Of a DNA stretch of 64,000 nucleotides, positions 8,483 through 58,575 are shown piece after piece. The notes beneath the pieces were generated by a model, which was given only the letters and a program-made list of their open reading frames with translations, did not search any database and was not told where the DNA came from. Source of the stretch: Actinobacteria bacterium RBG_16_68_21 (GTDB lineage Bacteria; Actinomycetota; Acidimicrobiia; Spongiisociales; UBA11373). The stretch is from assembly GCA_001767695.1 (NCBI GenBank), contig MELR01000015.1, forward strand, positions 39,887-103,886, given 5' to 3'. Within the stretch, counting starts at the first letter, position 1. Each line of letters begins with the position of its first letter. The position numbers and the translations under genes are program-made.

Positions 8483-9238
8483 ATGCTTCGAAGAATCCTC
8501 AGATTGGCAATGGTCCTCGGTGTGATCACTGCCCTGTTCCCGATGGCTTCGGCCATCGCCACCATCCCGAGGACCGTCACCTGTGATGGTCTGACGGCGA
8601 CGATCGTCGGCACTCCCGGCGATGACGTCATCGACGGCACCAACGGAGATGACGTGATCGTCGGGCTCGGCGGTGACGACGTCATCGACGGTGGCGGTGG
8701 TGACGACGTCATCTGCGGCGGTGCGGGGAACGATGACCTGACCGGCGGCTCGGACGCCGACACGCTAGAAGGCGGCAACGGCCGAGATGTGCTGTCCGGC
8801 GGCGACGGCGACGACTCCCTCGACGGGGGGCGGGGACGTGACCGCATCGAAGGCGATGTGGGCAACGACACAGCTCACGGGTTCAACGGCAACGACAGGG
8901 TCCTCGGCGGCCCCGGCGACGACGACCTGTTCGGCGAAGCCGGCAACGACACCCTTCGCGGGGGCAGCGGCACCGATTCGATCTCCGGCGGCGAGGACGA
9001 TGACACCATCGACGGTGGTGGTGACGACGACGTGATCAGCGGTGACGACGATGACGATGAGATCTCCGGCGGCGAGGGCGACGACGAGATCGACGGTGGT
9101 GAAGGCGACGACACCCTCGACGGTGACGAGGGTGATGACAGCGTCGACGGTGGTGAGGGCGACGACACCCTCGACGGTGACGAGGGCGATGACACCCTCG
9201 ACGGTGGCGACGGCGACGACGTCGAAGTCGACGACTGA
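8483..9238 (+). CDS. Secreted RTX-type calcium-binding repeat protein with a highly acidic C-terminal repeat array.
   Basis: ATG at 8483 preceded by aggggggcagag. Signal peptide MLRRILRLAMVLGVITALFPMASAIA. Many GTPGDDVIDG / GGDDVIDGGGGDDVICGGAGNDDL nonapeptides. The tail is DGGEGDDTLDGDEGDDSVDGGEGDDTL... Confidence 0.7.
   Translation: MLRRILRLAMVLGVITALFPMASAIATIPRTVTCDGLTATIVGTPGDDVIDGTNGDDVIVGLGGDDVIDGGGGDDVICGGAGNDDLTGGSDADTLEGGNGRDVLSGGDGDDSLDGGRGRDRIEGDVGNDTAHGFNGNDRVLGGPGDDDLFGEAGNDTLRGGSGTDSISGGEDDDTIDGGGDDDVISGDDDDDEISGGEGDDEIDGGEGDDTLDGDEGDDSVDGGEGDDTLDGDEGDDTLDGGDGDDVEVDD
9085..9230 (+). repeat. Tandem 27-nt repeats (about 5 copies) encoding DGGEGDDTL / DGDEGDDSV nonapeptides inside the RTX gene.
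   Basis: gacggtggtgaaggcgacgacaccctc, gacggtgacgagggtgatgacagcgtc, gacggtggtgagggcgacgacaccctc and gacggtgacgagggcgatgacaccctc follow one another directly. Confidence 0.6.
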
Positions 9239-13096: not shown

Positions 13097-14245
13097 CTAG
13101 TACAGGAACATCGGCTTGCCGGGGACGTGGCGCACCTTGGGGCGATAGGCGTCCACGTCGTAGAGCTCGCCGACGTCGACCCGCTTGACCCCCTCGCCTG
13201 TCACCGAGAGCGGCACCGCGGTGTAGGTGCCGCCGCGCAGGGCCACCATCCGGCCGGTGGCGCCCTCCATGGCGAGGTCGGCGGCCATCACCGCGTAGTT
13301 GGTGGCGACCATCAGGTCGAGAGAATCGGGGCGGCCGGAGCGGGCCAGGTAGGCGATGTTCTGGTTGATGATGCCGACACCGGTCTTCTGCTTGAGCAGG
13401 GCGCCGACGTGCTCGCCGATCCCGCCCAGCTTCTGGTGGCCGAAGGCGTCTGCCTCGCCGCTGAGCATCATGTCCCCACCCTCGATGGTGGCGCCTTCCG
13501 AGACGGTGCAGATGGCGTAGTTGGATGGGTTGCGCCCGCGGTCCTCCATCAACAAGGCGGTCAGCTTGTCGATGTCGAACGGAACCTCGGAGATGAGCGC
13601 CCGGTCGACGCTCGACAGGTAGGCGGTGATCAGCGAGGTCTCTCCCGAGTAGCGGCCGAACAGCTCGATGACCGCGATCCGTTCGTGACTTCCTGCAGCC
13701 GTGCGGAGGTTGTGGACGAAGTCGACCCCCCGGGTCACCGCGGTCGAGAACCCGATGCAGTAGTCGGTGCCGTGGACGTCGTTGTCCATCGTCTTGGGGA
13801 TGGCGATGACGTGCATGCCCTCGTTGTGGAGGCGGAGGCCGTAGGAGAGCGTGTCGTCGCCCCCGATGGGAATGAGGACGTCGATGCCCTGGCTCTCGAG
13901 CACCTTGAGGACGTGTTCGGTGAGGTCGTGCGGTCCGTCGCCCTGGACGCTTGCGGCGAGGAAGTCGGGCACGGCGCCGGATTTCACCTTGGATGGATTG
14001 GTTCGGCTGGAGTGGAGCACGGTCCCGCCGCTGCGGTCGATGGTGCGCACCGATGCCGGGTCGAGCGGCACCAGGTTCTCGGCGATCGATGCCGGGTCGT
14101 CTGGGTTGGTGGCGACGAGCCCTCCCCAGCCACGGCGGATGCCCACCATCGAGTGACCGGCCTCGGCGACCCGGATGACTGCCGCCTTGATGCTCGGATT
14201 CAGCCCGGGGACGTCGCCGCCCCCGGTGAGGATGCCGATTCGCAT
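13097..14245 (-). CDS. pfkA: 6-phosphofructokinase.
   Basis: [26 protein letters not shown] and IPKTMDNDV are canonical PFK motifs. Confidence 0.85.
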
Positions 14246-14320
14246 GTTCCTCCTCCTGACTCGCAGACTAGGGCGTCCGCGGGCAGCACCGGCGGCTGGT
14301 GCGGACTCCGGGGCGCGGGC

Positions 14321-14800
14321 CTAGGAGACCTTGCGGGGCACCTTCCCGGTCAGCGTGAAGATGGTCTTCATCACCTTATGGGCCCCATCCGCGGTCGGCT
14401 CGAACATCAGGGGGCAGCCTCCGTCGATCACGGTGATGCCGTGGCGTCTACCCAACTCGGTGGCCGAGTCGCAAACGCTTCCCTTGCCGAAGGCACGGTG
14501 CATCCACACATGACCGATCCCCAGATCGACGCACTCCTGCACCGCGGCGTCGGCCCGGTCGGGCTTGGTGCCGATCACGACGGCGCCCACTCCTCCGGGA
14601 ATAGCACCGATACTCGGATAGGCAGGGTCACCTTCGACCTGGTCGGCGTTCGGGTTCACCGCAAACACCTCGTAGCCCCTCTCCCGGAGCCGCTTGTACA
14701 CCGCATTGCTCCCGTGACCAGCTGGATTGCGCGACACGCCGGTCACCGCGATTCGCTTCTGGGCGAGGAACTCGGCTGCGGCTTGCTTGACCGATTGCAT
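14321..14800 (-). CDS. CoA-binding domain protein (YccU/YneT-like).
   Basis: KRIAVTGVSRNPAGHGSNAVYKRLRERGYEVFAVNPN. I place the start at the internal Met MQSVKQ of the track ORF. When I tried to count bases I found a 1-nt disagreement, so the ends may be off by plus or minus 1. Confidence 0.6.
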   Translation of the reverse strand: MQSVKQAAAEFLAQKRIAVTGVSRNPAGHGSNAVYKRLRERGYEVFAVNPNADQVEGDPAYPSIGAIPGGVGAVVIGTKPDRADAAVQECVDLGIGHVWMHRAFGKGSVCDSATELGRRHGITVIDGGCPLMFEPTADGAHKVMKTIFTLTGKVPRKVS

Positions 14801-14878
14801 GGGACTCCCTGGTTCGTCCCCGGATGAATACCCGCGGTCGGGGAACGCCACTAGGGGCGATCGGCCGGGCGCCTTCGG

Positions 14879-15136
14879 CTAGTGGTCCTCTTCGGTCCGT
14901 TCGACGCGGATGGTGCAGTCGGTGAGTACCGCGGCGAGCGCCCCCACCGCGGCAGCCATCGGCAGCAGCAACGCCCCGACCACTCCTACGGTGAGGGGGA
15001 TCTCCACGATGGTCTTGCCCTCCTCGTTCTGGATGATGAGGCGGCGGACGTTGCCCTCCCGGACCAGGTCTTTCACCTTGGCGAGCACCTCGTCGCCCTT
15101 GACCTTGAACTCTTCCCAGCGCGAGTCGTTGTTCAT
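14879..15136 (-). CDS. DUF4342-like small protein.
   Basis: 85 aa. MNNDSRWEEFKVKGDEVLAKVKDLVREGNVRRLIIQNEEGKTIVEIPLTVGVVGALL. Confidence 0.5.
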   Translation of the reverse strand: MNNDSRWEEFKVKGDEVLAKVKDLVREGNVRRLIIQNEEGKTIVEIPLTVGVVGALLLPMAAAVGALAAVLTDCTIRVERTEEDH

Positions 15137-15250
15137 CGCATCTCCCTTCTCTTCGGTTGTGTTACCGGCGGCGACGCAGGGTCGCCAGGGACGGAGGCCT
15201 CAACCGAGACGTCGCCTGACGGAAGGTCGTGGAGCCGGAGGCGGCCCGGC

Positions 15251-15484
15251 TCAGACGTTGACGACGGGGCAGGTCAGGGTGCGGGTGACGCCCTCGACTC
15301 CCTGGATCCCGGTGGCGATCAGCCTCCCCAGGGCATCCATGTCGGCGGCCGCCACCTGGGCGATCACGTCGTACGGTCCGGTCACGACCTCGGCGGCGCT
15401 CACCCCCGCCACCCTGCGGACATCGGTGCACACCTGGGTGTGCCTCCCGAGTTCGGCTTGGATCAGCACGAAAGCAGAGACCAC
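15251..15484 (-). CDS. Stand-alone Lrp/AsnC-type ligand-binding (RAM) domain protein.
   Basis: 77 aa. MVSAFVLIQAELGRHTQVCTDVRRVAGVSAAEVVTGPYDVIAQVAAADMDALGRLI resembles the C-terminal domain of AsnC regulators. No HTH is present. Confidence 0.6.
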   Translation of the reverse strand: MVSAFVLIQAELGRHTQVCTDVRRVAGVSAAEVVTGPYDVIAQVAAADMDALGRLIATGIQGVEGVTRTLTCPVVNV

Positions 15485-15586
15485 GGCACCTCCCGGTGTG
15501 ACGACGGAAGCTCAAGCTACACCGCGCCGATCGGGCGCGAGTAGCAACCCGCCTCTCCCTACCATCCCCCGGTCACAGGAGGGGCA

Positions 15587-16600
15587 ATGTCGGTGCTGGA
15601 ACTCGTCGAATTGGGAATGCCCTGGATGGGCCTCGACCCGTTCATCTTCACGGTGCATCACGTCGACGACTACCCGGCAGGCGACGACGACCTCGGGCCG
15701 TCGGTTTCGCTCGACGGTCGCAGGATCGGCGCCGACTTCTCCTACATCGACGGGTGGAGCATGTATCACGGGGAGCGGATCCCCGGGTTTCCCCAGCATC
15801 CCCACCGCGGGTTCGAGACCGTCACCGTCGTCCGCCGCGGCTACGTGGATCACTCCGACTCGCTGGGCGCCACCGCCCGCTACGGGCAGGGTGATGTGCA
15901 GTGGCTCACCACCGGCGGCGGCATCCAGCACGCCGAGATGTTCCCCCTCCTCGACCCCGAGGGCGCCAACCCGCTGGAACTCTTTCAAATCTGGCTCAAC
16001 CTGCCCCCGGAGTCGAAGATGGTCCCGGCGCACTTCGGGATGCTTTGGGGAGAGGACATTCCCACGCTCGACCCGGCACCCGGGGTGAGCGTCACCGCCA
16101 TCGCCGGGTCCCTCGGCGGCTCGCGGCCGCCCTCCCCGCCCCCCGACTCGTGGGCATCTCGTCCCGAATCCCACCTGGCGATCTGGCTGATCCGCCTCGC
16201 CCCCGATGCCACCTGGACCGTCCCGCAGGGGGCGCCGGGGGTCAACCGGATGCTCCACTTGTTCACAGGTGACCACGTTGCGGTCGATGCCACCCGGATC
16301 GGGGCAAGGACCGGAGCACGGGTTCGGCCGGATGCCGACGTCGTTCTCGCCAATCACGGCGAACCCGCCGAATTCCTCATGCTCCAGGGGATGCCGATCG
16401 GGGCCCCGGTGTTCCAGATGGGTCCCTTCGTGATGAACTCTGCCGAGGAGTTGCGGCGAGCCGTCGACGACTACCACCGCACCGGTTTCGGGGGCTGGCC
16501 GTGGGCGGGGCGGGCTCCGGTCCACGCCCGGACCGAGGGCCGGTTCGCCCTCCACGCCGACGGAAGGGTCGAGCACCGGGAGATGCAGGCAACCCGGTAG
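15587..16600 (+). CDS. Pirin family protein (bicupin).
   Basis: HPHRGFETVTVV pirin N-domain motif. ELFQIWLNLP. Confidence 0.8.
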   Translation: MSVLELVELGMPWMGLDPFIFTVHHVDDYPAGDDDLGPSVSLDGRRIGADFSYIDGWSMYHGERIPGFPQHPHRGFETVTVVRRGYVDHSDSLGATARYGQGDVQWLTTGGGIQHAEMFPLLDPEGANPLELFQIWLNLPPESKMVPAHFGMLWGEDIPTLDPAPGVSVTAIAGSLGGSRPPSPPPDSWASRPESHLAIWLIRLAPDATWTVPQGAPGVNRMLHLFTGDHVAVDATRIGARTGARVRPDADVVLANHGEPAEFLMLQGMPIGAPVFQMGPFVMNSAEELRRAVDDYHRTGFGGWPWAGRAPVHARTEGRFALHADGRVEHREMQATR

Positions 16601-16603
16601 CTT

Positions 16604-16690
16604 CGTCCGTCTCCCGTCTCCCGTCTCCCGTCTCCCGTCGCCCGTCTCCGGTCGCCCGTCGCCCGTTGTTGCCAGTTGCCAGTTGCTCGG
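16604..16690. repeat. Heptanucleotide microsatellite: (CCGTCTC)n about 8 units with point variants, then (GTTGCCA) x 2.5.
   Basis: cgtctcc cgtctcc cgtctcc cgtctcc cgtcgcc cgtctcc ggtcgcc cgtcgcc cgttgtt gccagtt gccagtt gc. It sits between the pirin stop and the chagasin-like gene. Confidence 0.8.
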
Positions 16691-16767
16691 AACCAACGAT
16701 GCCCTTGCCGCCGTCTCACCCGGTGAGGGGGGAGAGAACCAAGGTTTGTCGAGACAAGGGAATCGCC

Positions 16768-17181
16768 ATGACGAAACGGAACATCATCATCGTGGGAGTC
16801 CTCCTCGTCGCGCTGATCGCCGCCGGCGCCCTGGTGGCGCTGGCGATGTCGGGCGACGAGCCGAGCGGGCCCCTCGTCTATTCGGCTGGGGACGACGGCC
16901 GGTCCATCGAGGTGAAGGTGGGGGAGTCCTTCACCGTGGTCCTGGAAGGCAACCCCACGACCGGTTACAGCTGGCAGGTGGAGGGCGTCGACGAGGCGAT
17001 CCTCTCCGTCGGAGAACCGGACTACAAGAGCGACTCGGATCTGGTCGGCTCCGGGGGAACCTTCACCTTCACCTTCACGGCGCTCTCCGCCGGGGAGAGC
17101 CAGGTGCGCCTCGGCTACAGCCGGCCGTGGGAGAGTGTCGCCCCGCTGCAGAGCTTCACCTTGAACGTGACCGCTCGCTGA
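16768..17181 (+). CDS. Chagasin-family (I42) cysteine-peptidase inhibitor. Membrane-anchored or secreted.
   Basis: ATG at 16768. N-terminal TM or signal IIIVGVLLVALIAAGALVALA. The diagnostic NPTTGYSW motif, then GGTFTFTFTA. The upstream part of the track ORF is R/P-rich junk. Confidence 0.7.
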   Translation: MTKRNIIIVGVLLVALIAAGALVALAMSGDEPSGPLVYSAGDDGRSIEVKVGESFTVVLEGNPTTGYSWQVEGVDEAILSVGEPDYKSDSDLVGSGGTFTFTFTALSAGESQVRLGYSRPWESVAPLQSFTLNVTAR

Positions 17182-17192
17182 GGAACCCGGCT

Positions 17193-17228
17193 TCCGCGAA
17201 GAGGCCCCGGCGTGCCGGGGCCTTCTCG
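17193..17228 (+). terminator. GC hairpin after the chagasin-like gene.
   Basis: gaggccccggc gtg ccggggcctTc. Confidence 0.35.
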
Positions 17229-17461
17229 CGACCGGGCAACCCGAGGCGGGGCGAGAAAGCGGGACACGCGACGCGGTAGGGGTCCGCAACTGCTACAGTT
17301 CGTGCCCGCACACGCCGTATTGCGTGTGACGCCGGTCTTCGCTCCTTCAGTCCCGTCGAGTGAAGTCGCCGCAGCCCCCCAGCCACGGTCTTCGACTCTG
17401 GCGACCGGGGGACTCGCTGCGGGGCGTTTCCCTAGGACGGTCGATATTGAGGAGCAATCCA

Positions 17462-17716
17462 ATGGCAACCAACATCTACGTGGGCAATCTGGCGTTCGGC
17501 ACTGCGTCTGGAGATCTGCAAACGCTGTTCTCCGAGCACGGAACGGTCACCAGTGCCCAGGTCGTAGCCGATCGCGAGACCGGTCGCTCACGGGGCTTCG
17601 GCTTCGTCGAGATGGCCGATGACAACGAGGCGGCTGCGGCGATCAAGGCAATCGACGGTCGCAACGTCGACGGGCGTCAGCTCAAAGTCAACATCGCCAA
17701 GGATCGCAGGGCCTAA
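17462..17716 (+). CDS. RRM-type RNA-binding protein (Rbp).
   Basis: MATNIYVGNLAFGTAS (RNP2) and SRGFGFVEM (RNP1). 84 aa. It has a long upstream untranslated region, about 17230-17461. Confidence 0.8.
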   Translation: MATNIYVGNLAFGTASGDLQTLFSEHGTVTSAQVVADRETGRSRGFGFVEMADDNEAAAAIKAIDGRNVDGRQLKVNIAKDRRA

Positions 17717-17736
17717 GGCCTAGAGCGCGTTCAATA

Positions 17737-17779
17737 GATCGGGGTCGGAGGCTTGCCTCCGACCCCGATCTCTTTTGGG
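17737..17779 (+). terminator. Rho-independent terminator.
   Basis: gatcggggtcggaggc ttg cctccgaccccgatc followed by tcttttggg. Confidence 0.6.
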
Positions 17780-17796
17780 CAAGCCGCCGCGCGCAC

Positions 17797-18480
17797 TCAG
17801 TGGCCGACGCCGCCATCACCTTCGACGGGATCAACGACGTGCTCCCCGCGACGGGCCGCCGACACCCCTTCCCTGTTGAGGGCGGTCATGACCCAGTAGT
17901 AGGTGATGGCCAGCCCGAGTACCGCGTAGGTGTAGGTGGAACCGACATAGCCCAACCCTGCACCGCCGGCGAGGACGACGAGGATGGCGGTCGCGGATCG
18001 ATTCTCCCTCCTGATGAAACGCTCCTGGAGACGTGGATCCACCAGCCGGCGTTTCCGGGAGGCGTAGGCGAACATCGCTGCGTTGGATGCCGCCGCCAGG
18101 AAGACGCTGGACCCGTAGATGATCGCCGCCAGCCGCTCGTCCGGATTGGCGGTGACCAGGGCCGAACTGAAGGGTGTGATCGACACGGCGAAGAGGAAGA
18201 AGACGTTGAGGGTGAGCAGCGTCCCGTCCGCTCTCTGGATGTAGCGGAAGACGTTGTGGTGGTAGAGCCACAGCAATCCCACGAGGAAGAAGCTCACCGC
18301 GTACCCGAGCGTCTCCCGCCACAGGCTGCGGAGCTCGGGCCAGAGGCCCTCCGAACCGGAGATCTCCGCAACCACGGGCACGGTCAACTCGAGCACGAGG
18401 AGCGTGATCACGATGGCGATCACGCCGTCGGTGAGTGCCTTCAGTCGATCCGTGGAGAAGGTCGTTGCGTCCTGCGTCAT
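17797..18480 (-). CDS. TMEM175 / DUF1211 family membrane protein (putative K+ channel).
   Basis: FSTDRLKALTDGVIAIVITLLVLEL is the TMEM175 helix-1 signature. About six TM helices. Confidence 0.7.
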   Translation of the reverse strand: MTQDATTFSTDRLKALTDGVIAIVITLLVLELTVPVVAEISGSEGLWPELRSLWRETLGYAVSFFLVGLLWLYHHNVFRYIQRADGTLLTLNVFFLFAVSITPFSSALVTANPDERLAAIIYGSSVFLAAASNAAMFAYASRKRRLVDPRLQERFIRRENRSATAILVVLAGGAGLGYVGSTYTYAVLGLAITYYWVMTALNREGVSAARRGEHVVDPVEGDGGVGH

Positions 18481-19220
18481 CCGTCACCTCCGGGAATTCC
18501 CTTCACGCCCGATGGGTTGAGCCGGACTGCGGTGTAGTAGATCCGGGCAGTGGTGTCACACCCGATGCGGACGATCGCCGGCACCGCGGCGCAGCGCACC
18601 CGCATGTCGTGGAGGAAACCGGCGTCGACCCGGTCCTTGTTCTCCACCTGCCAGGTGGGCACGTCGGCGCGGTCGATGTTCTTCAGGTTCCGCCACCCGA
18701 AGTCATGGCGATTGCAGGCGAGTGTGAAGTCGAACGGTCCCCGCCCGAGAACGGGAGCCGAGCAGCCGTCGCTGTCCCACAGCAAGTACTCGGGGCGGGG
18801 ACGGGTGGGATCGGAGGGCGGTCCGGAGTATCGGAAGTCGCCCTCGAATCCGTCCGTTCCCGAGATCGGGATGTCGAGCCGGACGTCGATGGATTCACAA
18901 ACCGTGTCGAGTGTCACCTGAGCGATGGGCTCTCCAAGGATGGGATCGGGCACGTCGGCACAGACGTCGGCGGCGGGCGGTGCGGGGCCCACCGATCCGC
19001 TGATCCAGAATGCCGCCCCGACCGCGCCGATGACTCCAGTGGCCAGGCCGAGCAGGGTCGCGCGGAGCACCCGGTAGAGCCAGGTGTGCTTCGGCGCGGA
19101 ATCCTGCCCCGCCCGGGCGGCGGCCTTGGTCCGCCGTGCCTTCGTTTCCGGCGGTGGCGGTGGCGGGGGAGGCGGCGGTGGCGGTGGCGGGGGAGGTGGG
19201 GGAGGGGGAGGTACGGTCAT
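18477..19220 (-). CDS. Membrane-anchored protein with a 22-residue polyproline N-terminus and a C-terminal prokaryotic phospholipase A2-like domain.
   Basis: MTVP(22 x P)ETKARRTKAAARAG..., then a TM helix LLGLATGVIGAVGAAFWI. The domain contains WDSDGCSAP...FTLACNRHDFGWRNL, a Cys-rich His-Asp dyad like secreted PLA2. ATGA overlap with the upstream gene at 19217-19220. Confidence 0.5.
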   Translation of the reverse strand: MTVPPPPPPPPPPPPPPPPPPPPPETKARRTKAAARAGQDSAPKHTWLYRVLRATLLGLATGVIGAVGAAFWISGSVGPAPPAADVCADVPDPILGEPIAQVTLDTVCESIDVRLDIPISGTDGFEGDFRYSGPPSDPTRPRPEYLLWDSDGCSAPVLGRGPFDFTLACNRHDFGWRNLKNIDRADVPTWQVENKDRVDAGFLHDMRVRCAAVPAIVRIGCDTTARIYYTAVRLNPSGVKGIPGGDG

Positions 19221-20446
19221 CTCGAGCCCACCGTGAAGTCGAAGGAGAACCTCTCGCCCTGGGTGGCGAGAGTGTGCCGCTGCTGATGGACAACTGTTCC
19301 ACCGACCTGGACGATCAGGTCGAAGGTCTGGGAGCCCTCGCCGAGGCAGTCGCTGGTGAATACCACCGTCGCCGTGTACGAGCCCTCGGGCGCCTGTCCG
19401 GTGGGCCAGAAGATGTTCTCCGCGGCCGGTGAGGACGAGTCGGAATTGCAGGGAAAGTTGGCATCCCGGTCGAGAGTCCCGCCTGAGGCAACGGTGCGGT
19501 TGTTGTAGAACACCTCATCGAGCGCCGGGTCGGTCACCATGAGATCGAGGTCGGCCTTGGAGCTCCAGATCAGGGTCACCTGCACATCGCCGCTTCCCAG
19601 CCCGGAGGGAAGCTCTGGCCGGCCGGCTTGGGGGATCAGGGTCTCGAGTTGGGCCCGGTTGCGAGCGACGAACTCCGGAGCCAGCCGCTCGGCGACCGTG
19701 CGGGTCGCCGGGTCGAGGGTCCGATTGCGGCATGCGAAGTCGTCGGCGGCGATTCGTAGCTCCTCCACGCCCAGACTCCGAGCGGCGTCTCCCCCCACGG
19801 CTGCCAGGGACGCCCGCTGCCGTTCGAGGAGATCGTCGGGCGACGCCGCGGTGTACCCGCGCTCGGCCATGCAGGCCGCCCAGGCGTCCAAGGCGGCGAC
19901 ATACACCGGGTCGGAGAGGGCATCGGCCTCCAACTGGTCGATCGGGTAAGGCAGGTTCTCGAGGCCGTCGACGGCTGCGGCCAGCGTCTGGTAGCCGATT
20001 GCGGCGCATCCACCGTCCCCGCCTCCCTCGGCATCCAGGGGCGCGCCGTAGAGAGCGATCTCATAGGCGGGCCGCTCATCCACGGAAGGCCCGCCGCTCC
20101 CCAGGGTGGGCCGAGGCGTATCGCCTCCCGCGGCGATTCCGTAGCCGTCGCGAGACGGATCGAGGATCGCGTAGATGTCCTCGGCCACGGCCGGCCCGCG
20201 GAAGTCCTGCCCGCGCTCTGCCATGCACGAGCGCACGGCCTCGGTCACCTGCATCTCCACGGCGGTGCCGAGAATCCCCGGATCGGTGAACAGCGCGGTG
20301 GGATCCTCCCAGATCACGGCCGGGTCGGTGCGCCCGGCGAGATCGGGAGTCCGGGTCGCCGATCGGTAGAGGAGCAGGGCAACCCCTGCCACGACCGCGG
20401 TCGTAGCCAGCCAGATCCAGACGAGAGTTCTTCTGTTGCGGTCCAT
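19217..20446 (-). CDS. Membrane-anchored exported hypothetical protein with an internal CMAERG-containing repeat and a C-terminal beta-rich domain.
   Basis: N-terminal TM LVWIWLATTAVVAGVALLLY. The repeat appears as VRSCMAERGQDF and WAACMAERGYTAASPDD. C-terminus DLDLMVTDPALDEVFYNNRTVASGGTLDRDANFPCNSD...NIFWP. Translationally coupled to the PLA2-like gene. Confidence 0.5.
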   Translation of the reverse strand: MDRNRRTLVWIWLATTAVVAGVALLLYRSATRTPDLAGRTDPAVIWEDPTALFTDPGILGTAVEMQVTEAVRSCMAERGQDFRGPAVAEDIYAILDPSRDGYGIAAGGDTPRPTLGSGGPSVDERPAYEIALYGAPLDAEGGGDGGCAAIGYQTLAAAVDGLENLPYPIDQLEADALSDPVYVAALDAWAACMAERGYTAASPDDLLERQRASLAAVGGDAARSLGVEELRIAADDFACRNRTLDPATRTVAERLAPEFVARNRAQLETLIPQAGRPELPSGLGSGDVQVTLIWSSKADLDLMVTDPALDEVFYNNRTVASGGTLDRDANFPCNSDSSSPAAENIFWPTGQAPEGSYTATVVFTSDCLGEGSQTFDLIVQVGGTVVHQQRHTLATQGERFSFDFTVGSR

Positions 20447-21332: not shown

Positions 21333-22436
21333 ATGCGGGAGTACATCGACGGGTCTACGGCGATAGTGCGCGGGGCACTCGACGCCGGGTGCACCTTCTT
21401 CGCCGGATACCCGATAACTCCGGCTTCGGGGATCCTCATGGCGATGATGCGCGAGCTCCCCAAGGTGGGCGGCGTGGCGATCCAGGGAGAGGACGAAATC
21501 GCCTCGATCGGCATGTGCATCGGGGCGACCCTCGCCGGATCCAGGGCGATGACGGCCACCAGCGGTCCCGGCATCAGCCTCTACAGCGAGAACATCGGGC
21601 TGGCGGTGATGGGCGAGGTGCCGCTGGTCATCGTGGACGTGCAGCGGCTCGGTCCCTCGACGGGAGGGGCGACCACGGTCTCCCAGGGCGACGTCCAATT
21701 CGTGCGATGGGGGACCGGAGGCGGGTTTCCAATCATCGCCCTCGCCCCATCGACCGTCACCGAGTCGTACTGGCTCACCGCCAAGGCATTCGACCTGGCC
21801 GAGCGCTTCCGGTGTCCGGTGTTCGTCGTCACCGACAAAGAGCTGGCCACCACTCTGACCACCGTCGACCTCGAGTCCTATCCGACGATCCAGGTCCGTG
21901 ACCGGGAGGTCGGGTCGGGTGGGCCGCCGTACCGCTACGCCCCCGCCGACGAAGTGGCGCCGCTGCACGAGTTCGGTCGCGGGGCGACCGTGCGGTTCAC
22001 CGGCTCGACCCACGACACCGGGGGGTACATCACCAAGCACCTCCCCACCGTCGACGCCCTCAACCGCCATCTATCCGAGAAGATCGAGGACCATCGCGAC
22101 GAGATCGAGCTCGCCGACGCGGACCTGGAGGACGGCGCCCCGACCCTTGTCATCGGTTACGGCGTCACCGGGGGAGCGGTGCGCGCCGCCGTTGCCGAGG
22201 CGAGGCGCCGGGGAATCAGAGTCTCCGGGCTGGTGGTGCAGAGTCTGTGGCCGATTCCGGAGACGGTGATCCGCCGCGCCATGGAGGGAGTGGACCGGGT
22301 GGTCGTCCCCGAGTTGAACCTGGGGCTCTACCGGCGCGAGGTGGAGAGGATCGCCGCAGGTAGATCGGTGGTCGGGGTGAACCGGGTGGATGGCGAACTG
22401 ATCGACGTGGACCAGATCGTGGAGGCTGTGACGTGA
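21333..22436 (+). CDS. korA: 2-oxoglutarate (2-oxoacid):ferredoxin oxidoreductase subunit alpha.
   Basis: MREYIDGSTAIVRGALDAGCTFFAGYPITPAS...ATSGPGISL. An RBS ggagggagg lies 5 nt upstream. Confidence 0.85.
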   Translation: MREYIDGSTAIVRGALDAGCTFFAGYPITPASGILMAMMRELPKVGGVAIQGEDEIASIGMCIGATLAGSRAMTATSGPGISLYSENIGLAVMGEVPLVIVDVQRLGPSTGGATTVSQGDVQFVRWGTGGGFPIIALAPSTVTESYWLTAKAFDLAERFRCPVFVVTDKELATTLTTVDLESYPTIQVRDREVGSGGPPYRYAPADEVAPLHEFGRGATVRFTGSTHDTGGYITKHLPTVDALNRHLSEKIEDHRDEIELADADLEDGAPTLVIGYGVTGGAVRAAVAEARRRGIRVSGLVVQSLWPIPETVIRRAMEGVDRVVVPELNLGLYRREVERIAAGRSVVGVNRVDGELIDVDQIVEAVT

Positions 22437-23743
22437 CCGTCGACATCACCCCGCTGCGCCGGTACCGCAACGAGACTCCCTACCCGTTCTGTCCCGGCTG
22501 TGGGCACGGCAGCATCCTCGACAAACTGTCCGAGGCGCTGGCGACCATCGACATCGATCCGGCGAGCGTCGTTGTGGTGAGCGACATCGGGTGTGCCGGG
22601 CTCTCCGACCAGTACTTCGACACCAGCGCGTTCCATGGACTCCACGGGCGCAGCATCACCTACGCCACCGGCGTCAAGCTGGCACGTCCCGAGCTGACCG
22701 TGATAGTGATCATGGGCGACGGCGGTACCGGCATCGGCGGAACCCATCTGATCAACGCGGCGAGACGGAACGTCGGCATCACGGTCCTCGTGTTCAACAA
22801 CCTCAACTTTGGGATGACCGGAGGTCAGCACTCGACAACCACACCAGATGGGGCGGTGACCGCCACGACCCCGGGAGGGAATCTGGAGCATCCGCTCGAC
22901 ATCTGCGCCACGGTCGGGGTCAACGGTGCCGGGTACGTGTATCGGGGGACCAGCTTCGACGACGATCTCTCGACGCGTATCGTCGAGGCGATCCGGCACC
23001 CCGGGTTTGCCCTCCTGGACATTTGGGAGCTGTGCACCGCGTATTTCGTGCCGGCGAACAAGTTCACCCGCCGCGGGCTGGAGTCGACCATCGAGCGGCT
23101 CGGGCTGGCGACCGGCGTCCTGTATCAGCACGACGTCGCCGAGTACGCCACGGCGTATCGGGCGGCATCGCGGGACCTGCCCTCCCGGATGCGGCCGGTG
23201 GGCATTCCCACCACCCACCCATCGCCGCTCACCGACACGACGTCCCTGGTCGTCGCCGGTTCGGCCGGCGCCAAGGTCCGTTCGGCGGCACGGCTGGTAG
23301 GCGAGGCGGCGATCAGGTCGGGGCTGTGGGCGACCCAGCGCGACGACTACCCGGTGACCGTGAAGACCGGGCACAGCCTCTCCGAAGTGGTGCTCGGCCC
23401 GCGCCCGGCGGCGCCGGTTGGGGTGACCGTTCCGGACGTGGCCGTCGTCGTCTCCGCCGATGGCCTGCGCAAGGTCCAGCCGATGCTGGCGGCGATGGGA
23501 CTGAACGGCGTGGTCTTCACCATCCCCGAGTTCGCCGACGTGGTGACCGGAGCCCGGTTGGTGGTGATCGATCCGACGGCATCCCCGGTGCGGATCCCCA
23601 AGGCGCAGCTCGCCCTGGTCCTGCTCACCGCCGCCGTCGCCCGTCTGGGTCTGTTTCCGGTGGAGGCCATGACCGAGGCGGCCGCCGCCGGAGCCTTCGC
23701 CGAGGAGAACCTGGCGGCGATAGAGGCGGGGCGGGGACTCTGA
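22433..23743 (+). CDS. korB: 2-oxoacid:ferredoxin oxidoreductase subunit beta (TPP-binding) with a C-terminal gamma-like extension.
   Basis: GTGA overlap with korA. FCPGCGHGSI...VSDIGCAG...IMGDGG is the TPP/Fe-S region. Confidence 0.85.
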   Translation: MTVDITPLRRYRNETPYPFCPGCGHGSILDKLSEALATIDIDPASVVVVSDIGCAGLSDQYFDTSAFHGLHGRSITYATGVKLARPELTVIVIMGDGGTGIGGTHLINAARRNVGITVLVFNNLNFGMTGGQHSTTTPDGAVTATTPGGNLEHPLDICATVGVNGAGYVYRGTSFDDDLSTRIVEAIRHPGFALLDIWELCTAYFVPANKFTRRGLESTIERLGLATGVLYQHDVAEYATAYRAASRDLPSRMRPVGIPTTHPSPLTDTTSLVVAGSAGAKVRSAARLVGEAAIRSGLWATQRDDYPVTVKTGHSLSEVVLGPRPAAPVGVTVPDVAVVVSADGLRKVQPMLAAMGLNGVVFTIPEFADVVTGARLVVIDPTASPVRIPKAQLALVLLTAAVARLGLFPVEAMTEAAAAGAFAEENLAAIEAGRGL

Positions 23744-23847
23744 GGCGAGCTCTCTTGTCGGGTTCGCGCTCTGGTTGACATCCCTCATGAACGGCGATAA
23801 CTTACTATCGCTAACTTACTGTCGATAAGTCACACGGGAGAGGTGTC

Positions 23848-26016
23848 ATGGAGAAGCTGGGTCGGTTCGTCGTTCGGTTGCGCTGGCCGGTGGTGATCGC
23901 CGCCCTCGTGTTCATGGCGGTGGCGGGAGCCGTCGGTGGCGGCGTCGCCGACTCCCTGTCCAACGGCGGGTTCCTCGATCCCAACGCCGAGTCGACCCTG
24001 GCGAGCGACCTCCTCGAGGACGGTTTCGGTGTGTCGGATCCGGCGGTCATCCTGGTGGTGAGCGCTCCCGGGGGTTCGGTGGACGATCCCGCGGTTGCCG
24101 CCGACGGCATCGCTCTCACTCAGGTCCTCGCCGCCGAGGAGGGCGTCACCGCGGCCTCGTCCTATTGGACGTTGGGGAGCCCACCGCCACTGCGAAGCTT
24201 CCGGGGCGATCGCGCCCTGGTGTTCGCCTCGATCGAGGGCGACCAGGGGGAGGTGCTCGATCACTCGGCAGCCATCTCGGACGAGTACCGAGGAAGCTTC
24301 GGTTCGCTCGAGGTGCTCGTCGGGGGCGTGGGGCCGCTCTTCTCCGAGGTGCAGGCGACGGTCGAGGCCGACCTGGCCCGGGCGGAACTGATCGCCTTCC
24401 CTCTGACCGCGGTGCTGCTCATCGTCGTCTTCGGCAGCCTGGTGGCCGCCTCCTTGCCGCTGGCCATGGGAGGACTCGCCATCGTCGGCTCACTCCTCAT
24501 CCTCCAGGTCCTCACCGGCTTCACCGAGGTCTCCATCTTTGCCCTCAACCTGACGACCGCGCTCGGCCTCGGTCTGGCGATCGACTACTCGCTCTTCATT
24601 GTGTCCCGCTTCCGTGAGCAACTCGGCCGGGGCGACCAAACCGGGGACGCGGTGGTGGCCACGGTGCGCACTGCCGGACGGACCGTGCTGTTCTCCGCAG
24701 CCACGGTTGCCGTCTCGCTGGCGGCGATGATCATCTTCAAGCTCGCCTTCCTGCGCTCGTTCGGATATGCCGGCATCGCCGTCGTCCTCATGGCGGCGAT
24801 CGGGGCGGTCGTCGTGTTGCCGGCGATCCTCGCCATCCTTGGCTCCCGGGTGGAGAAGGGCCGGGTGCGCAAGGCGCGGCAGAGCGCGGTGGAGGACGGC
24901 GTCTGGCACCGGGTGGCCACGTTTGTGATGCGGCGCCCGATTCCCATCGCCACCGCCGCCCTGCTGTTCCTCGTGGTTCTCGGGTTGCCGTTCCTGGGCG
25001 TGAACCTCGGGCAATCAGACGACCGGATGCTGTCGACGACGTCCAATGCCCGCACCACCGGCGACGTGATGCGCGCCGAGTTCTCGGCGTTCGAGTCGGC
25101 TCCGGTCGACGTCATCTTCCCCGGCCTCGCCGACACCTCCGAGGCCGACGCGCTGGCGGTCACGCTGTCCCGGCTCGACGGGGTGGCGCGAGTCGATGGT
25201 CCCACCGGGTCCTACATCGCGGGCTTCAACGTGATCTCCGGGGGCCCGGCATACGGTCGCTTCACCGCGGATGCCGGCATGTTCTTCTCGGCGATACCGT
25301 CGGTGGAGCCCAACGGCCCGGAGGCCGAGGCACTGGTCGACGAGATCCGGAGTCTCGACGTCGGCCGCACTCTCCTGGTGGGGGGAACGTCGGCGTTCCT
25401 CCACGACACCAAGGCATCACTGCTCGGCGACCTTCCCTGGACCCTGGGAGTCATCGCCGTCGTCACGTTCGTGCTGCTCTTCCTGATGTTCGGATCCGTC
25501 GTGGTTCCGGCCAAGGCGCTGGTACTCAACGTGCTCTCCCTCTCGGCGACCTTCGGCGCCCTCGTCTGGGTGTTCCAGGAGGGGCACTTCGCCGACCTGC
25601 TCGGTGTCACCGCCACCGGGTCTCTGGAGATCACGATGCCGATCCTCATGTTCTGCATCGCCTTCGGGCTCTCGATGGACTACGAGGTGTTCCTGCTCAG
25701 CCGCATCAAAGAGGAGCACGACCTCGGTGCGGACAACGTCGCTTCGGTGGCCCGCGGGCTGGAGCGGACCGGGCGGATCGTCACCGCGGCCGCGGTGCTG
25801 ATCGCGGTCGTGTTCCTGGCGTTCGCCACGTCCGAGGTGTCGTTCATGAAGATGTTCGGCGTCGGCATGACACTCGCCGTCCTCGTGGATGCCTTCGTGG
25901 TGCGGGCGACGCTCGTGCCCGCGTTCATGAGGCTCGCCGGCAATGCCAACTGGTGGGCGCCGCGGTGGATGAAGCGGATCTACAACCGGTTCGGGATCAG
26001 CGAGGTGACCGAGTGA
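23848..26016 (+). CDS. MMPL family (RND superfamily) transporter.
   Basis: 722 aa. Two 6-TM bundles. GLAIDYSLFIVSRFRE and GLSMDYEVFLLSRIKEE duplicated motifs. Confidence 0.85.
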   Translation: MEKLGRFVVRLRWPVVIAALVFMAVAGAVGGGVADSLSNGGFLDPNAESTLASDLLEDGFGVSDPAVILVVSAPGGSVDDPAVAADGIALTQVLAAEEGVTAASSYWTLGSPPPLRSFRGDRALVFASIEGDQGEVLDHSAAISDEYRGSFGSLEVLVGGVGPLFSEVQATVEADLARAELIAFPLTAVLLIVVFGSLVAASLPLAMGGLAIVGSLLILQVLTGFTEVSIFALNLTTALGLGLAIDYSLFIVSRFREQLGRGDQTGDAVVATVRTAGRTVLFSAATVAVSLAAMIIFKLAFLRSFGYAGIAVVLMAAIGAVVVLPAILAILGSRVEKGRVRKARQSAVEDGVWHRVATFVMRRPIPIATAALLFLVVLGLPFLGVNLGQSDDRMLSTTSNARTTGDVMRAEFSAFESAPVDVIFPGLADTSEADALAVTLSRLDGVARVDGPTGSYIAGFNVISGGPAYGRFTADAGMFFSAIPSVEPNGPEAEALVDEIRSLDVGRTLLVGGTSAFLHDTKASLLGDLPWTLGVIAVVTFVLLFLMFGSVVVPAKALVLNVLSLSATFGALVWVFQEGHFADLLGVTATGSLEITMPILMFCIAFGLSMDYEVFLLSRIKEEHDLGADNVASVARGLERTGRIVTAAAVLIAVVFLAFATSEVSFMKMFGVGMTLAVLVDAFVVRATLVPAFMRLAGNANWWAPRWMKRIYNRFGISEVTE

Positions 26017-56789: not shown

Positions 56790-58575
56790 CCCCGATCCCG
56801 CGGGGGTTGTACTCCCTGATCTCCCAGTAGCCCTCATAGTGCCACGTCCACTCGTCGATGGTCTCGTATCCCTCGGGATGCGTGACGTAGCGGTAGACGT
56901 CGACTGTCCACCCCGGGGTGCCGGCCTGGGTGACGGTGGCGGTCCCAGGCGTGCAGTTGAGCTCTGCGTCGTCGGTGTTCTCCCGGGTCTCCTTGCGGGG
57001 AGACGTGTAGTTGTAGCGGTCCGAAAGACCGGCCGTGATCTCGAGACCCCCGTTGTCCCCGTAGATCTTGACGGTCACCGAAGTGTCGGTATACGAGGTG
57101 CGGATCAGGATGGCGTTGGCCGTGTTGTTCCTGAAGATGAGCTCGGGGTCGCGCCACCCGAGGGTTGCCTCCCGTCCTTCCGGGTATCGGCTGAACCAGA
57201 TGGTGTGCGGCATGTGGTAGACGTCTTCGAGCCCTGCAAAGAACGACGCGTTGTAGATCGTGGTGGTGAACTGGCTGGTGCCGCCTCCGATGCAGATCTC
57301 CCCCTCCTCGACGATCTCGCCGCCGATGAGGGCTCCGGCGCACACATATCCCTTGGCGACCGTGCGCTTGCCGACGACGTCGTTGAGCGAGAAGTTCTCA
57401 CCCGACATGATCATCGTCCCGTCTACGTCGTCGGCGATCTGGTGGATGTTGGTCACCCGCGCCGCGCAGCACGGGTGGAAGGTGGTGAATTCCCCGATGA
57501 GCCCGCTGATGCCCAGGGCTTTGGCGTCCGCGGTCGAAAACGGCGCCTCGCGCCCGTCGTGGTAGGGGAGATCTCCGGTGCGCCCCGGGTTGGCGGCCGC
57601 GCTCAACACCGCATCGACGAGGGCGGCCGGGTCGGGTTCCTGGACCGGCGTGCTCGGCAGGATCGTCACCTCGTCGGTCTCGACGTCCGCCTGGATCTCG
57701 GCGTCGGCCGGGGCGGTCTCGAGTGAGGGACCGAATGCGGCGACATAGTTGCCGATGACTCCGGGATCGAGCGTGATCAGGAAGCTCGGCGCTTCGCCCG
57801 AGTCGTCGCGTGTCACCCGCAGAGCTTCTCCGATCACGTTGTCGGGGATCGTTATCGACCTGTCGAATTCCGAATTGACGAGCGTCACGTCCCCGTCGAT
57901 GAGGTGGCGGGCTTCTACGACCGCGGCGTCGATGTCACCGCTCTGCAACGGTGCGGGAAGAACCCGCGTGGGCAGGGTGACCACCGGTGCGTCTGGGACC
58001 GCCAGCACGGCGGCAAGTGCCTGCACGGCCTGATCGGAGTCGATGCCGATGCCGTCGGCGGGGTACTGGTAGACGATGGCTCCGTCCTCGACCGTGACAT
58101 CGCCGGGGAAGGGCGGATCGGCGATGCCCTCGGCTTCCCACCCGGCGACGATGCTCGCCAGGGCTGCCTGGTCGTAGTCGTAGCTCACCGCGATGTCGCG
58201 ACTCCCCGAGCCAAACCGGGTCAGCCAGGAGCCGAACTGGCGGAAGACGCTGCCGGTGCGGCCGTTGTGCAGCGCCTCGTCGAGGATCGCCTGCTCATCG
58301 ATGCCGAATCCGATCTGGCGCGGATCGAGATCGAACCGATGTCCGGCGACCACCGCCGGGACGGGGCGGGAGGCAAGGGATTCCTCAAGACCGCGAACGC
58401 GGGCGAGAGCGGCGTTCTCGTCGAGACCGCCGATGTCCACCCCGTCCACGGTGACGCTTCCCAGCACCTCGCCCCCGTTGGAGACCCGGTCGATGCCGTA
58501 GACGAGCACCACCATCGCCACCAGCGAACCGGCGACCAGAAGTGCGAGACGGAGGGGTGCGGGGACGTTCAGCAT
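56752..58575 (-). CDS. VanW family protein (membrane-anchored, with an upstream peptidoglycan-binding-like region).
   Basis: FSLNDVVGKRTVAKGYVCAGALIGGEIVEEGEICIGGGTSQFTTTIYNASFFAGL is the VanW core. N-terminal TM. Confidence 0.75.
   Translation of the reverse strand: MLNVPAPLRLALLVAGSLVAMVVLVYGIDRVSNGGEVLGSVTVDGVDIGGLDENAALARVRGLEESLASRPVPAVVAGHRFDLDPRQIGFGIDEQAILDEALHNGRTGSVFRQFGSWLTRFGSGSRDIAVSYDYDQAALASIVAGWEAEGIADPPFPGDVTVEDGAIVYQYPADGIGIDSDQAVQALAAVLAVPDAPVVTLPTRVLPAPLQSGDIDAAVVEARHLIDGDVTLVNSEFDRSITIPDNVIGEALRVTRDDSGEAPSFLITLDPGVIGNYVAAFGPSLETAPADAEIQADVETDEVTILPSTPVQEPDPAALVDAVLSAAANPGRTGDLPYHDGREAPFSTADAKALGISGLIGEFTTFHPCCAARVTNIHQIADDVDGTMIMSGENFSLNDVVGKRTVAKGYVCAGALIGGEIVEEGEICIGGGTSQFTTTIYNASFFAGLEDVYHMPHTIWFSRYPEGREATLGWRDPELIFRNNTANAILIRTSYTDTSVTVKIYGDNGGLEITAGLSDRYNYTSPRKETRENTDDAELNCTPGTATVTQAGTPGWTVDVYRYVTHPEGYETIDEWTWHYEGYWEIREYNPRGIGVNGDLQPGCRTG

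Follow-up and report, generated by a model that had tools for sequence, protein, structure and literature searches.

A copy-number-variable heptanucleotide array upstream of a putative ECF-type promoter, between pirin and chagasin-family inhibitor genes in Acidimicrobiia

Does a regular heptanucleotide array upstream of a gene act on that gene, or is it a product of replication slippage? The question is raised by the spacer between a pirin gene (15587–16600, plus strand; Pfam Pirin, E = 1.7e-23; Pirin_C, E = 6.8e-17) and a gene for a chagasin-family (I42) peptidase inhibitor (16768–17181, plus strand; Pfam Inhibitor_I42, E = 4.1e-26) in the window, which is the whole 64-kb stretch of DNA analysed. 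Identical pirin and I42 proteins are recorded as OFW66422.1 and OFW66423.1 of 'Actinobacteria bacterium RBG_16_68_21', and the nearest pirin relatives are uncultured Acidimicrobiia throughout. The I42 protein bears an N-terminal membrane anchor or signal sequence, and its gene is followed by an RRM-domain gene and then, on the opposite strand, by TMEM175 and phospholipase A2 genes. A preliminary description had named both neighbours, on which Pfam agrees, and had placed a heptamer array between the pirin stop codon and the I42 start, in the promoter region of the inhibitor gene. The placement holds in a broad sense, as the array lies upstream of I42 and the repeat tract ends 2 nt before the putative -35 element. 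Our preferred reading, to which we assign a probability of roughly 0.6, is that of a slippage-generated, non-coding heptameric SSR upstream of the I42 promoter, which would be neither an on/off phase switch nor a conserved operator.

The repeat itself is beyond doubt. Tandem Repeats Finder (TRF) reported a period-7 array with the consensus CCGTCTC and 8.6 copies (16607–16666, plus strand; score 92, 90% matches), whereas no period-7 score exceeded 44 when the whole 64-kb window was shuffled 40 times with dinucleotide content preserved. No other array in the window combines more than three copies with a period indivisible by three. A second array, (GTTGCCA) in 2.7 copies (16668–16686, plus strand; 100% matches), follows in the same 7-nt register, and both lie within 16604–16690. 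Read in this register, the tract consists of 12 heptads, the first four being perfect CCGTCTC units and the next four CCGTCGC, CCGTCTC, CGGTCGC and CCGTCGC. The unit after these is decayed, and heptads 9–12 read CCGTTGT, TGCCAGT, TGCCAGT and TGCTCGG. About 6–7 nt separate the pirin stop codon from the array, and about 100 nt separate the array from the I42 ATG at 16768; the C-rich strand of the array is the sense strand for both flanking genes. No inverted partner or palindromic element of the array was found in the window; such elements accompany arrays of this kind in other organisms. Head-to-tail iteration of a 7-nt unit beyond chance, one property of a heptameric SSR, is therefore present according to both TRF and the shuffles.

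In the I42 reading frame, an ORF (16501–17181) runs across the repeat without a stop codon. The statement that the repeat is out of frame with both neighbours is thus not strictly accurate. A coding repeat (PSPVSRL) was considered and rejected, given that orthologous I42 proteins begin with MTKR or MSKR. Because a conserved promoter intervenes between the repeat and the ATG, and because a 7-nt indel allele (see below) shifts the frame, the CCGTCTC repeat is non-coding and intergenic. A sigma-70 promoter scan of 16300–17500 returned no site, and an Rfam search by E-value over 14000–20000 retrieved chance miRNA matches only. With Rfam gathering thresholds, 20 array-bearing metagenome loci yielded two tRNAs only, both located away from the arrays.

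Slipped-strand variation in copy number had also been proposed, and the comparison between strains bears this out. The same locus was recovered from other assemblies by exact-protein look-up. Contigs from three of them (ERZ27256843 k141_4505697, JGI 3300030613 Ga0299915_10004144 and ERZ27256953 k141_1769157; loci L001/L006, L002/L007 and L008) contain five perfect CCGTCTC units against four in the window, although these contigs may be non-independent, some of the assemblies possibly deriving from the same samples. The first array accordingly counts 9.6 copies in these strains, and the pirin–I42 intergenic distance is 174 nt against 167 nt in the window. Over 6–11 kb the five-unit contigs are 99.6–99.7% identical to the window, with 12–25 substitutions, and the single gap across this length is one perfect CCGTCTC unit. 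This gap maps to the run of four perfect units (16607–16634, plus strand), which is therefore the polymorphic section of the array. Unit-sized differences among close relatives are another property of a heptameric SSR, and a change within the perfect section is what slipped-strand mispairing would predict. At the contig level, two alleles differing by one unit were recovered between assemblies, and 90% protein clusters yielded no further allele. An assembly artefact was considered and judged unlikely: typical reads exceed the array (60–67 nt) in length, and the five-unit form occurs in both megahit (k141) and JGI assemblies. Five contigs start in or near the tract, L209 at 16648, L210 inside the orthologous array and L003–L005 all at 16704. 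Such breaks fit a variable, assembly-breaking repeat, although they are suggestive only.

Whether this variation could switch the inhibitor gene depends on where its promoter lies. We read the upstream DNA of I42 orthologues at 57–82% identity, covering ten lineages and at least five gene contexts, in which I42 follows pirin, the RRM gene or a glyoxalase-family gene, or is divergent from one of several different genes. The pattern GGAACC-N16/17-CGTC precedes I42 in all ten lineages (16689–16715 in the window). In the window, the putative -35 element GGAACC (16689–16694, plus strand) is followed 17 nt later by the putative -10 element CGTCTC (16712–16717, plus strand), with its CGTC core at 16712–16715. 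In a MAFFT alignment of seven loci, the GGAACC and CGTC columns are invariant against a mean column identity of 56%, and GGAACC is also retained in three further loci. CGTC is followed by T or C and, about 12 nt further, in most lineages by a GAGGGGG block (16725–16731, plus strand). The GGG of this block is invariant in the seven-locus alignment, the block is degenerate in lineage L219, and it is probably the start of the I42 leader. ECF-sigma promoters have a GGAAC -35 element and commonly a CGTC -10 element (PMC3397946), and the conservation of the same pattern upstream of all I42 orthologues examined suggests that the I42 promoter is of the ECF-sigma type. By itself the GGAACC/CGTC pattern is statistically unremarkable in 64 kb, and its weight comes from conservation. 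A search for GGAACC-N14–18-CGTC elsewhere in the window gave one match (57616–57640, minus strand), inside a long ORF. An autoregulated ECF sigma factor nearby was considered and set aside, as this only other match lies within a gene. As a minor observation, the solitary CCGTCTC copy at 16711–16717, which contains the putative -10 element, is identical to the repeat unit; this may be a coincidence.

The position of this promoter bears directly on the suggestion that slippage gives phase-variable spacing of promoter elements. In a phase-variable promoter, the SSR lies between the -35 and -10 elements, in the leader or over a required element, where a change in unit number switches expression. 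Copy number does vary here, with two alleles between samples, but the arrays end at 16686 and the putative -35 element starts at 16689, with the -10 element further downstream. Both arrays are wholly upstream of the -35 element, and changes in unit number therefore leave the -35/-10 spacing, the leader and the distance between promoter and ATG unaltered. Judging from this arrangement, the spacing switch would fail unless an undiscovered element sits in the 3' end of pirin.

Alternatively, the number of units upstream of the -35 element might grade the strength of the I42 promoter, leading to heterogeneous expression of the inhibitor through upstream DNA contacts, helical phasing (7 nt corresponds to 240 degrees) or local DNA structure. 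The difference in copy number between near-identical strains and the immediate vicinity of the tract to the -35 element are what such grading would need, and the product, an exported or membrane-anchored envelope protein, is of a type often subject to variation. There is also a precedent in Haemophilus influenzae, where (TGAAAGA)n about 100 bp upstream of hmw1A and hmw2A modulates expression (Dawid 1999, as cited in PMC2651432). No other heptamer SSR upstream of a gene is well known for such an effect. In both systems a heptanucleotide unit is repeated about 100 bp ahead of an ORF, and copy number varies among strains. The hmw repeats, as that source describes them, comprise 13–38 units in a host-adapted pathogen, involve alternative start sites and have a demonstrated effect on expression, whereas the present array has 8–10 units and lies upstream of a -35 element in a free-living organism. 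Against graded control, the array is outside both the -35/-10 pair and the leader, just a one-unit difference has been observed, and the unit sequence is not conserved in lineage L212. Most I42 orthologues are without an array, including that of L221, which has an identical gene order. In addition, the host is a free-living sediment or soil bacterium in whose clade heptamer arrays adjoin genes of all kinds. Because the array is dispensable in orthologues, we do not favour this explanation and consider it improbable.

The orthologous sites indicate how the array may have come about. Gene order near pirin is fluid: in L129, the closest pirin relative (88%), pirin is followed by the RRM gene, and in L166 and L218 by the RRM gene and then I42. 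The order of the window, pirin, I42 and RRM, is common to L212/L210 (I42 82% identical) and L221 (I42 61%). In L221, the pirin stop codon is followed by unique sequence starting GCCGTCACC, with a single-copy CCGTCAC and no repeat. L129 has at this place TCGTCTG in 2.1 copies, a two-copy proto-repeat. In L212, TCGTTTC in 5.9 copies (equivalent to about six TTTCTCG) fills the gap up to the -35 element, as the tract does in the window, where it occupies almost all of the 88 nt between the pirin stop and the -35 element. Every unit of the L212 array differs from the window unit by C-to-T changes, and the two arrays have therefore been homogenised separately. The last unit of the GTTGCCA array, GTTGCTC, matches the single-copy ATTGCCC of L166 (ATTGCCC GGAACC), and this second array therefore arose through local duplication (triplication) of the sequence abutting the -35 element. 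Related lineages thus offer a natural series at one site of 1, 2, about 6, 8.6 and 9.6 units, with two of the alleles at about 99.7% identity. It can also be noted that an array occurs at one site in two lineages 18% apart in I42 protein, which could reflect selection rather than neutrality.

Overall, the window lineage has the repeat, L212 has one with a different unit and L213 a weak one, while L166, L214, L218, L219, L221 and L222 keep the promoter but have no repeat. Because the promoter is kept in all lineages and the repeat is not, the compared sequences are best described by microsatellite birth and turnover rather than by a conserved operator. The second suggestion of the preliminary description, a reiterated regulator-binding site (an iteron or direct-repeat operator) controlling I42 or pirin, does not fit this pattern. 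In favour of such a site, the promoter is directly preceded by eight to nine near-identical units, and three units cover 21 bp, about two helical turns. Nevertheless, the unit differs in L212 and is missing in L221 and most other I42 loci, CCGTCTC arrays occur in many unrelated contigs (see below), and no regulator gene is consistently linked. We regard an operator as very improbable. Under the preferred reading of a slippage-generated SSR, the array would have originated in a short sequence containing CGTCT, immediately downstream of the pirin stop codon, and replication slippage would have expanded and homogenised it until it nearly filled the spacer up to the -35 element, where it would still slip by one unit. 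Any effect would then probably be compositional, in that the G-poor, pyrimidine-rich, unstructured tract may damp read-through from pirin, and a dedicated sequence-specific function would be absent.

Heptamer arrays are common in this clade, contrary to the expectation that such repeats are rare in high-GC actinobacterial intergenic DNA. We examined 575 kb of Acidimicrobiia DNA, consisting of pirin and I42 loci together with the window. Among non-triplet arrays of at least three copies in this sample, period 7 is the dominant class with 23 arrays, followed by period 14 with four and periods 5 and 10 with one each; periods 4, 8 and 11 are not represented. In shuffled sequence, about 0.45 period-7 arrays are expected per 64 kb. 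The array of the window is the longest in the sample. Non-coding sequence makes up only about 16% of the DNA, yet all 14 strong arrays (score of at least 40) lie between genes; four of the intergenic arrays had been mislabelled as coding by a crude GC3-based caller and were corrected with database gene calls. The strong arrays have diverse units, about three of the 14 containing G3/C3 tracts, and the genes that they adjoin are of all kinds. What the arrays of the clade have in common is therefore their period of 7 nt.

An over-representation of heptameric SSRs has been reported for many bacteria, especially for non-pathogens with large, high-GC genomes, and was ascribed to slippage of the polymerase (Mrazek 2007, as summarised in PMC4692102). 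The present array resembles the long heptameric SSRs of that summary in being head-to-tail, intergenic and variable in number and sequence between relatives, and both the reported frequency in high-GC non-pathogens and the slippage explanation fit it. It is a further case of this known class, which has itself already been described. Neither Acidimicrobiia nor the unit CCGTCTC/GGGAGAC was among the described cases that we found, and the locus adds a direct allelic pair in environmental populations. Heptamer repeats have long been noted without a function having been established, and the present locus leaves this picture unchanged. For annotation, it indicates that a gene in such organisms should not be assigned a phase-variation switch solely on account of a regular heptamer array ahead of it.

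The unit CCGTCTC itself is widespread. Runs of at least three CCGTCTC units were detected in at least 120 metagenome contigs with GC contents of 37–72% and unrelated flanks. Among the matches listed, (CCGTCTC)n often adjoins, in register, arrays of CCGATTC, CCGCTAC, CCGCTTC or CCGTCAC. CCGATTC is GGGAATC on the opposite strand, so the metagenome arrays belong to the same family as the G3N4 heptamers of PMC4692102. In that family, GGGAATC of Xanthomonas and GGGGAYT of Nostoc are abundant, intergenic and variable among relatives, with function undescribed (Rehm 2015, PMC4692102). In vitro, G3N4 heptamers fold into G4 and i-motif structures, and their positions are biased: the G strand is typically antisense where the array precedes an ORF by no more than 50 bp, and sense where it follows a stop codon within the same distance (PMC4692102). 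A rough census of the metagenome arrays gave the same polarity. Among arrays abutting stop codons, the G-rich strand was sense in 44 and the C-rich strand in 15, and in 45 of 60 cases the gene nearer to the array lay 3' of the C-rich strand. The gene caller used in this census was crude, extending the I42 gene of the window to an upstream in-frame ATG, and only stop-anchored comparisons were used. With its C-rich strand sense beside a stop codon, the array of the window has the minority orientation. Polarity toward neighbouring genes across metagenomes, also seen in PMC4692102, is an observation that goes beyond pure slippage.

The number of units in these metagenome arrays was also counted. 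Runs of perfect units fall monotonically (70 of three, 26 of four and 9 of five), while whole period-7 tracts peak at four, a count confounded by the requirement for at least three perfect units. A preference for four units is the pattern of Rehm 2015, with which the counts of perfect-unit runs were compared.

Membership in the G3N4 family raises the idea of a structural DNA element, in which a quadruplex of the template strand, (GGGAGAC)n, or an i-motif of the coding strand would obstruct RNA polymerase or replication between pirin and I42, or modulate either. On the minus strand, at least four G3 tracts are spaced 4 nt apart, and the array as a whole has seven C3/G3 tracts. The segment 16613–16643 on the minus (template) strand is the longest of the nine canonical G4 motifs in the window according to a regular-expression census, and ViennaRNA with its gquad option predicts a quadruplex there. 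The wide occurrence of the unit, often beside (GGGAATC)n-type arrays, the in vitro structures and position bias of related heptamers (PMC4692102) and the polarity bias reproduced in our census all point in the same direction. The array also shares with the GGGAATC and GGGGAYT repeats the form (GGG-N4)n, a place between co-directional ORFs, variability in length and sequence and the lack of a link to gene function. It differs from them in other respects: those repeats are abundant in their hosts, whereas the host here is not enriched, with one array in 64 kb, and the array is atypical in having its G strand antisense about 6 nt after a stop codon and about 100 nt before an ATG. Furthermore, orthologous sites do not preserve the G tracts: no G3/C3 tract occurs in the L212 array (TTTCTCG), and L221 lacks an array altogether. 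G/C tracts are also infrequent among the strong Acidimicrobiia arrays. Taken together with the minority orientation, these points make a structural role quite unlikely.

A last reading concerns the transcript of the spacer rather than its DNA. Rho utilization (rut) sites are stretches of about 70–80 nt of C-rich, G-poor, unstructured RNA. As a rut-like Rho-loading tract, the array in the 3' UTR of pirin would act as an insulator that stops read-through before the I42 promoter, with copy number tuning termination. The RNA would in this case be about 90 nt of C-rich, G-poor sequence, and I42 would depend on its own ECF promoter. We consider this the most interesting of the four functional ideas weighed, although it is still unlikely. 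The scan for intrinsic terminators over 16300–17500 found no hairpin terminator after pirin. The 78-nt tract contains 37 C and 18 G, within the top 1.4% of windows for C/G skew, and the sense RNA is predicted to be essentially unfolded (minimum free energy [MFE] of -7.7 kcal/mol for 90 nt, z = +2.43, open centroid). By composition and predicted folding, the tract thus has the sense C-rich, G-poor, unstructured RNA after a stop codon that is expected of a rut site. The same character recurs in the three pirin–I42 spacers, those of the window, of L212 and of the repeat-free L221, with a skew of 0.27–0.39 and 65–81% pyrimidine. Their MFE per nt is -0.04 to -0.08 against -0.26 to -0.44 upstream of I42 in other foldable contexts, where the regions are balanced in composition and structured.

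This common composition may, however, be due to shared ancestry, as L221 starts with the related single-copy CCGTCAC, and the effective sample is two to three lineages. The skew is high rather than extreme. In addition, the pirin 3' flanks of 78 other orthologues are not G-poor, with a mean skew of -0.03 and a skew of at least 0.25 in 5% of them against 7% in the background. The possibility that a G-poor tract is a general trait of pirin 3' flanks was rejected on these numbers. That the three pirin–I42 spacers, repetitive or not, are alike in being G-poor, pyrimidine-rich and unstructured is an observation that could reflect selection.

The slippage-generated SSR that we prefer may have a modest role as an insulator or expression tuner. 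A broader and speculative extension, to which we give low odds, would see functional intergenic punctuation in the Acidimicrobiia heptamer arrays and in the (CCCNNNN)n arrays widespread among soil bacteria. The array would then be a copy-number-tunable insulator that loads Rho through its C-rich, unstructured transcript, impedes RNA polymerase by a G3N4 template strand, or does both. If so, the insulator would set the read-through from pirin into I42, and slippage would make cells differ, heritably and by degrees, in the strictness of ECF-sigma (envelope-stress) control over the protease inhibitor. The series of unit numbers beside a well-conserved ECF-type promoter could serve as a test bed for the effects of such arrays on transcription.

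Tandem intergenic heptamers are also known as the TAACTGA repeats of Beggiatoaceae, cyanobacteria and Bacteroidetes (MacGregor 2015, PMC4679880). Like the cyanobacterial heptanucleotide repeats cited in PMC4692102, they lie beside many unrelated genes, and their function, where one is proposed, is post-transcriptional. The TAACTGA repeats have one fixed unit, mostly in 2–6 copies, a few nt from start codons (PMC4679880), whereas the unit of the present array is lineage-specific and the array is located upstream of a promoter.

An ECF-sigma-type promoter motif, GGAACC-N16/17-CGTC(T/C), was recognized within 16689-16731, upstream of the chagasin-family I42 inhibitor gene, through its conservation across orthologues. 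The motif precedes all I42 orthologues examined, which represent 10 lineages (the window and the Acidimicrobiia relative contigs L166, L212-L214, L217-L219, L221 and L222) and at least five gene contexts, and in most of these lineages GAGGGGG follows about 12 nt downstream of CGTC(T/C). This conservation suggests that the inhibitor would belong to an envelope-stress regulon in Acidimicrobiia. Comparison of window 15587-19220 with relative contigs L129, L166, L218, L219 and L221 showed that close Acidimicrobiia relatives differ in how the pirin, I42, RRM, AsnC-type, TMEM175 and phospholipase A2 genes are ordered. The arrangements found were pirin-I42-RRM, pirin-RRM-I42 and pirin-RRM without I42; I42 and its promoter region of about 85 nt move together as a module.

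The RRM-domain gene (17462-17716) is preceded by some 170 nt of conserved 5' sequence, located at 17285-17464 in the window, with counterparts at L129 4035-4227, L166 900-1087, L218 1385-1574 and L210 715-894. This region starts with a -10-like CTGCTAnnGT box and contains a core of 55-69 nt at 92-98% identity. Pairing is predicted between the Shine-Dalgarno AGGAGC and an invariant GCUCCUU of this region, which would thereby be a candidate translational leader, either autoregulatory or thermosensing. Covariation was seen in 2 of 52 pairs, weak support that reflects the invariance of most pairs, and the region matched no Rfam family.

Several contigs begin close to the heptanucleotide tract. L003, L004 and L005, which match the window locus and come from different assemblies, share exactly the same first base, window 16704, within the I42 promoter spacer and 18 nt downstream of the tract; the first base of L209 corresponds to window 16648. 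The common start of the first three may reflect a strain breakpoint, a single read set or reduced coverage close to the C/G-tract repeat.

Period-7 or period-14 arrays occupy essentially every intergenic spacer of the Acidimicrobiia contigs L213 (439-462, 1267-1394 and 1877-1907) and L217 (927-951 and 1856-1898), and thus heptamer arrays are far more abundant in some lineages than in the window's genome. In the orthologous Sua5-PrmC spacer, both contigs have the unit CGAATTG/GCGAATT. A large palindromic element, composed of (GGGAGAC)n, AACCCTCGGGAKGC, a loop of 15-25 nt, GCMTCCCGAGGGTT and (GTCTCCC)n in that order, includes the C-rich array as one of its arms in about 10 unrelated contigs from metagenomes. 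This element, found at the left flank of the arrays in L009, L056, L062, L104, L107, L110 and L119 (and L013/L111), matched no Rfam family. A REP-like hairpin, GTCATYCCGAGC...GCTCGGRATGAC, adjoins the array in about eight other metagenome contigs.

Other repeats occur in the window. At 19149-19205, within the minus-strand gene 18477-19220, a (GGCGGT)n/24-nt repeat gives the prokaryotic phospholipase A2 homologue an N-terminal stretch of about 22 prolines; the repeat has the same length in the 99.7%-identical contig L001. The AT-rich 14-nt direct repeat CGATAACTTACTAT (2.4 copies, 23795-23828) lies between the divergent ORFs 22328-23788 (-) and 23848-26016 (+), directly after a TTGACA hexamer, and contains an internal palindrome, CGATA...TATCG; it looks like an operator. 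Tandem Repeats Finder (TRF) additionally retrieved 27-, 54- and 81-nt periodic coding repeats at 8-1069 and 8603-9221, within large ORFs; these repeats are rich in GGxGxD-type (calcium-binding, RTX-like) motifs.
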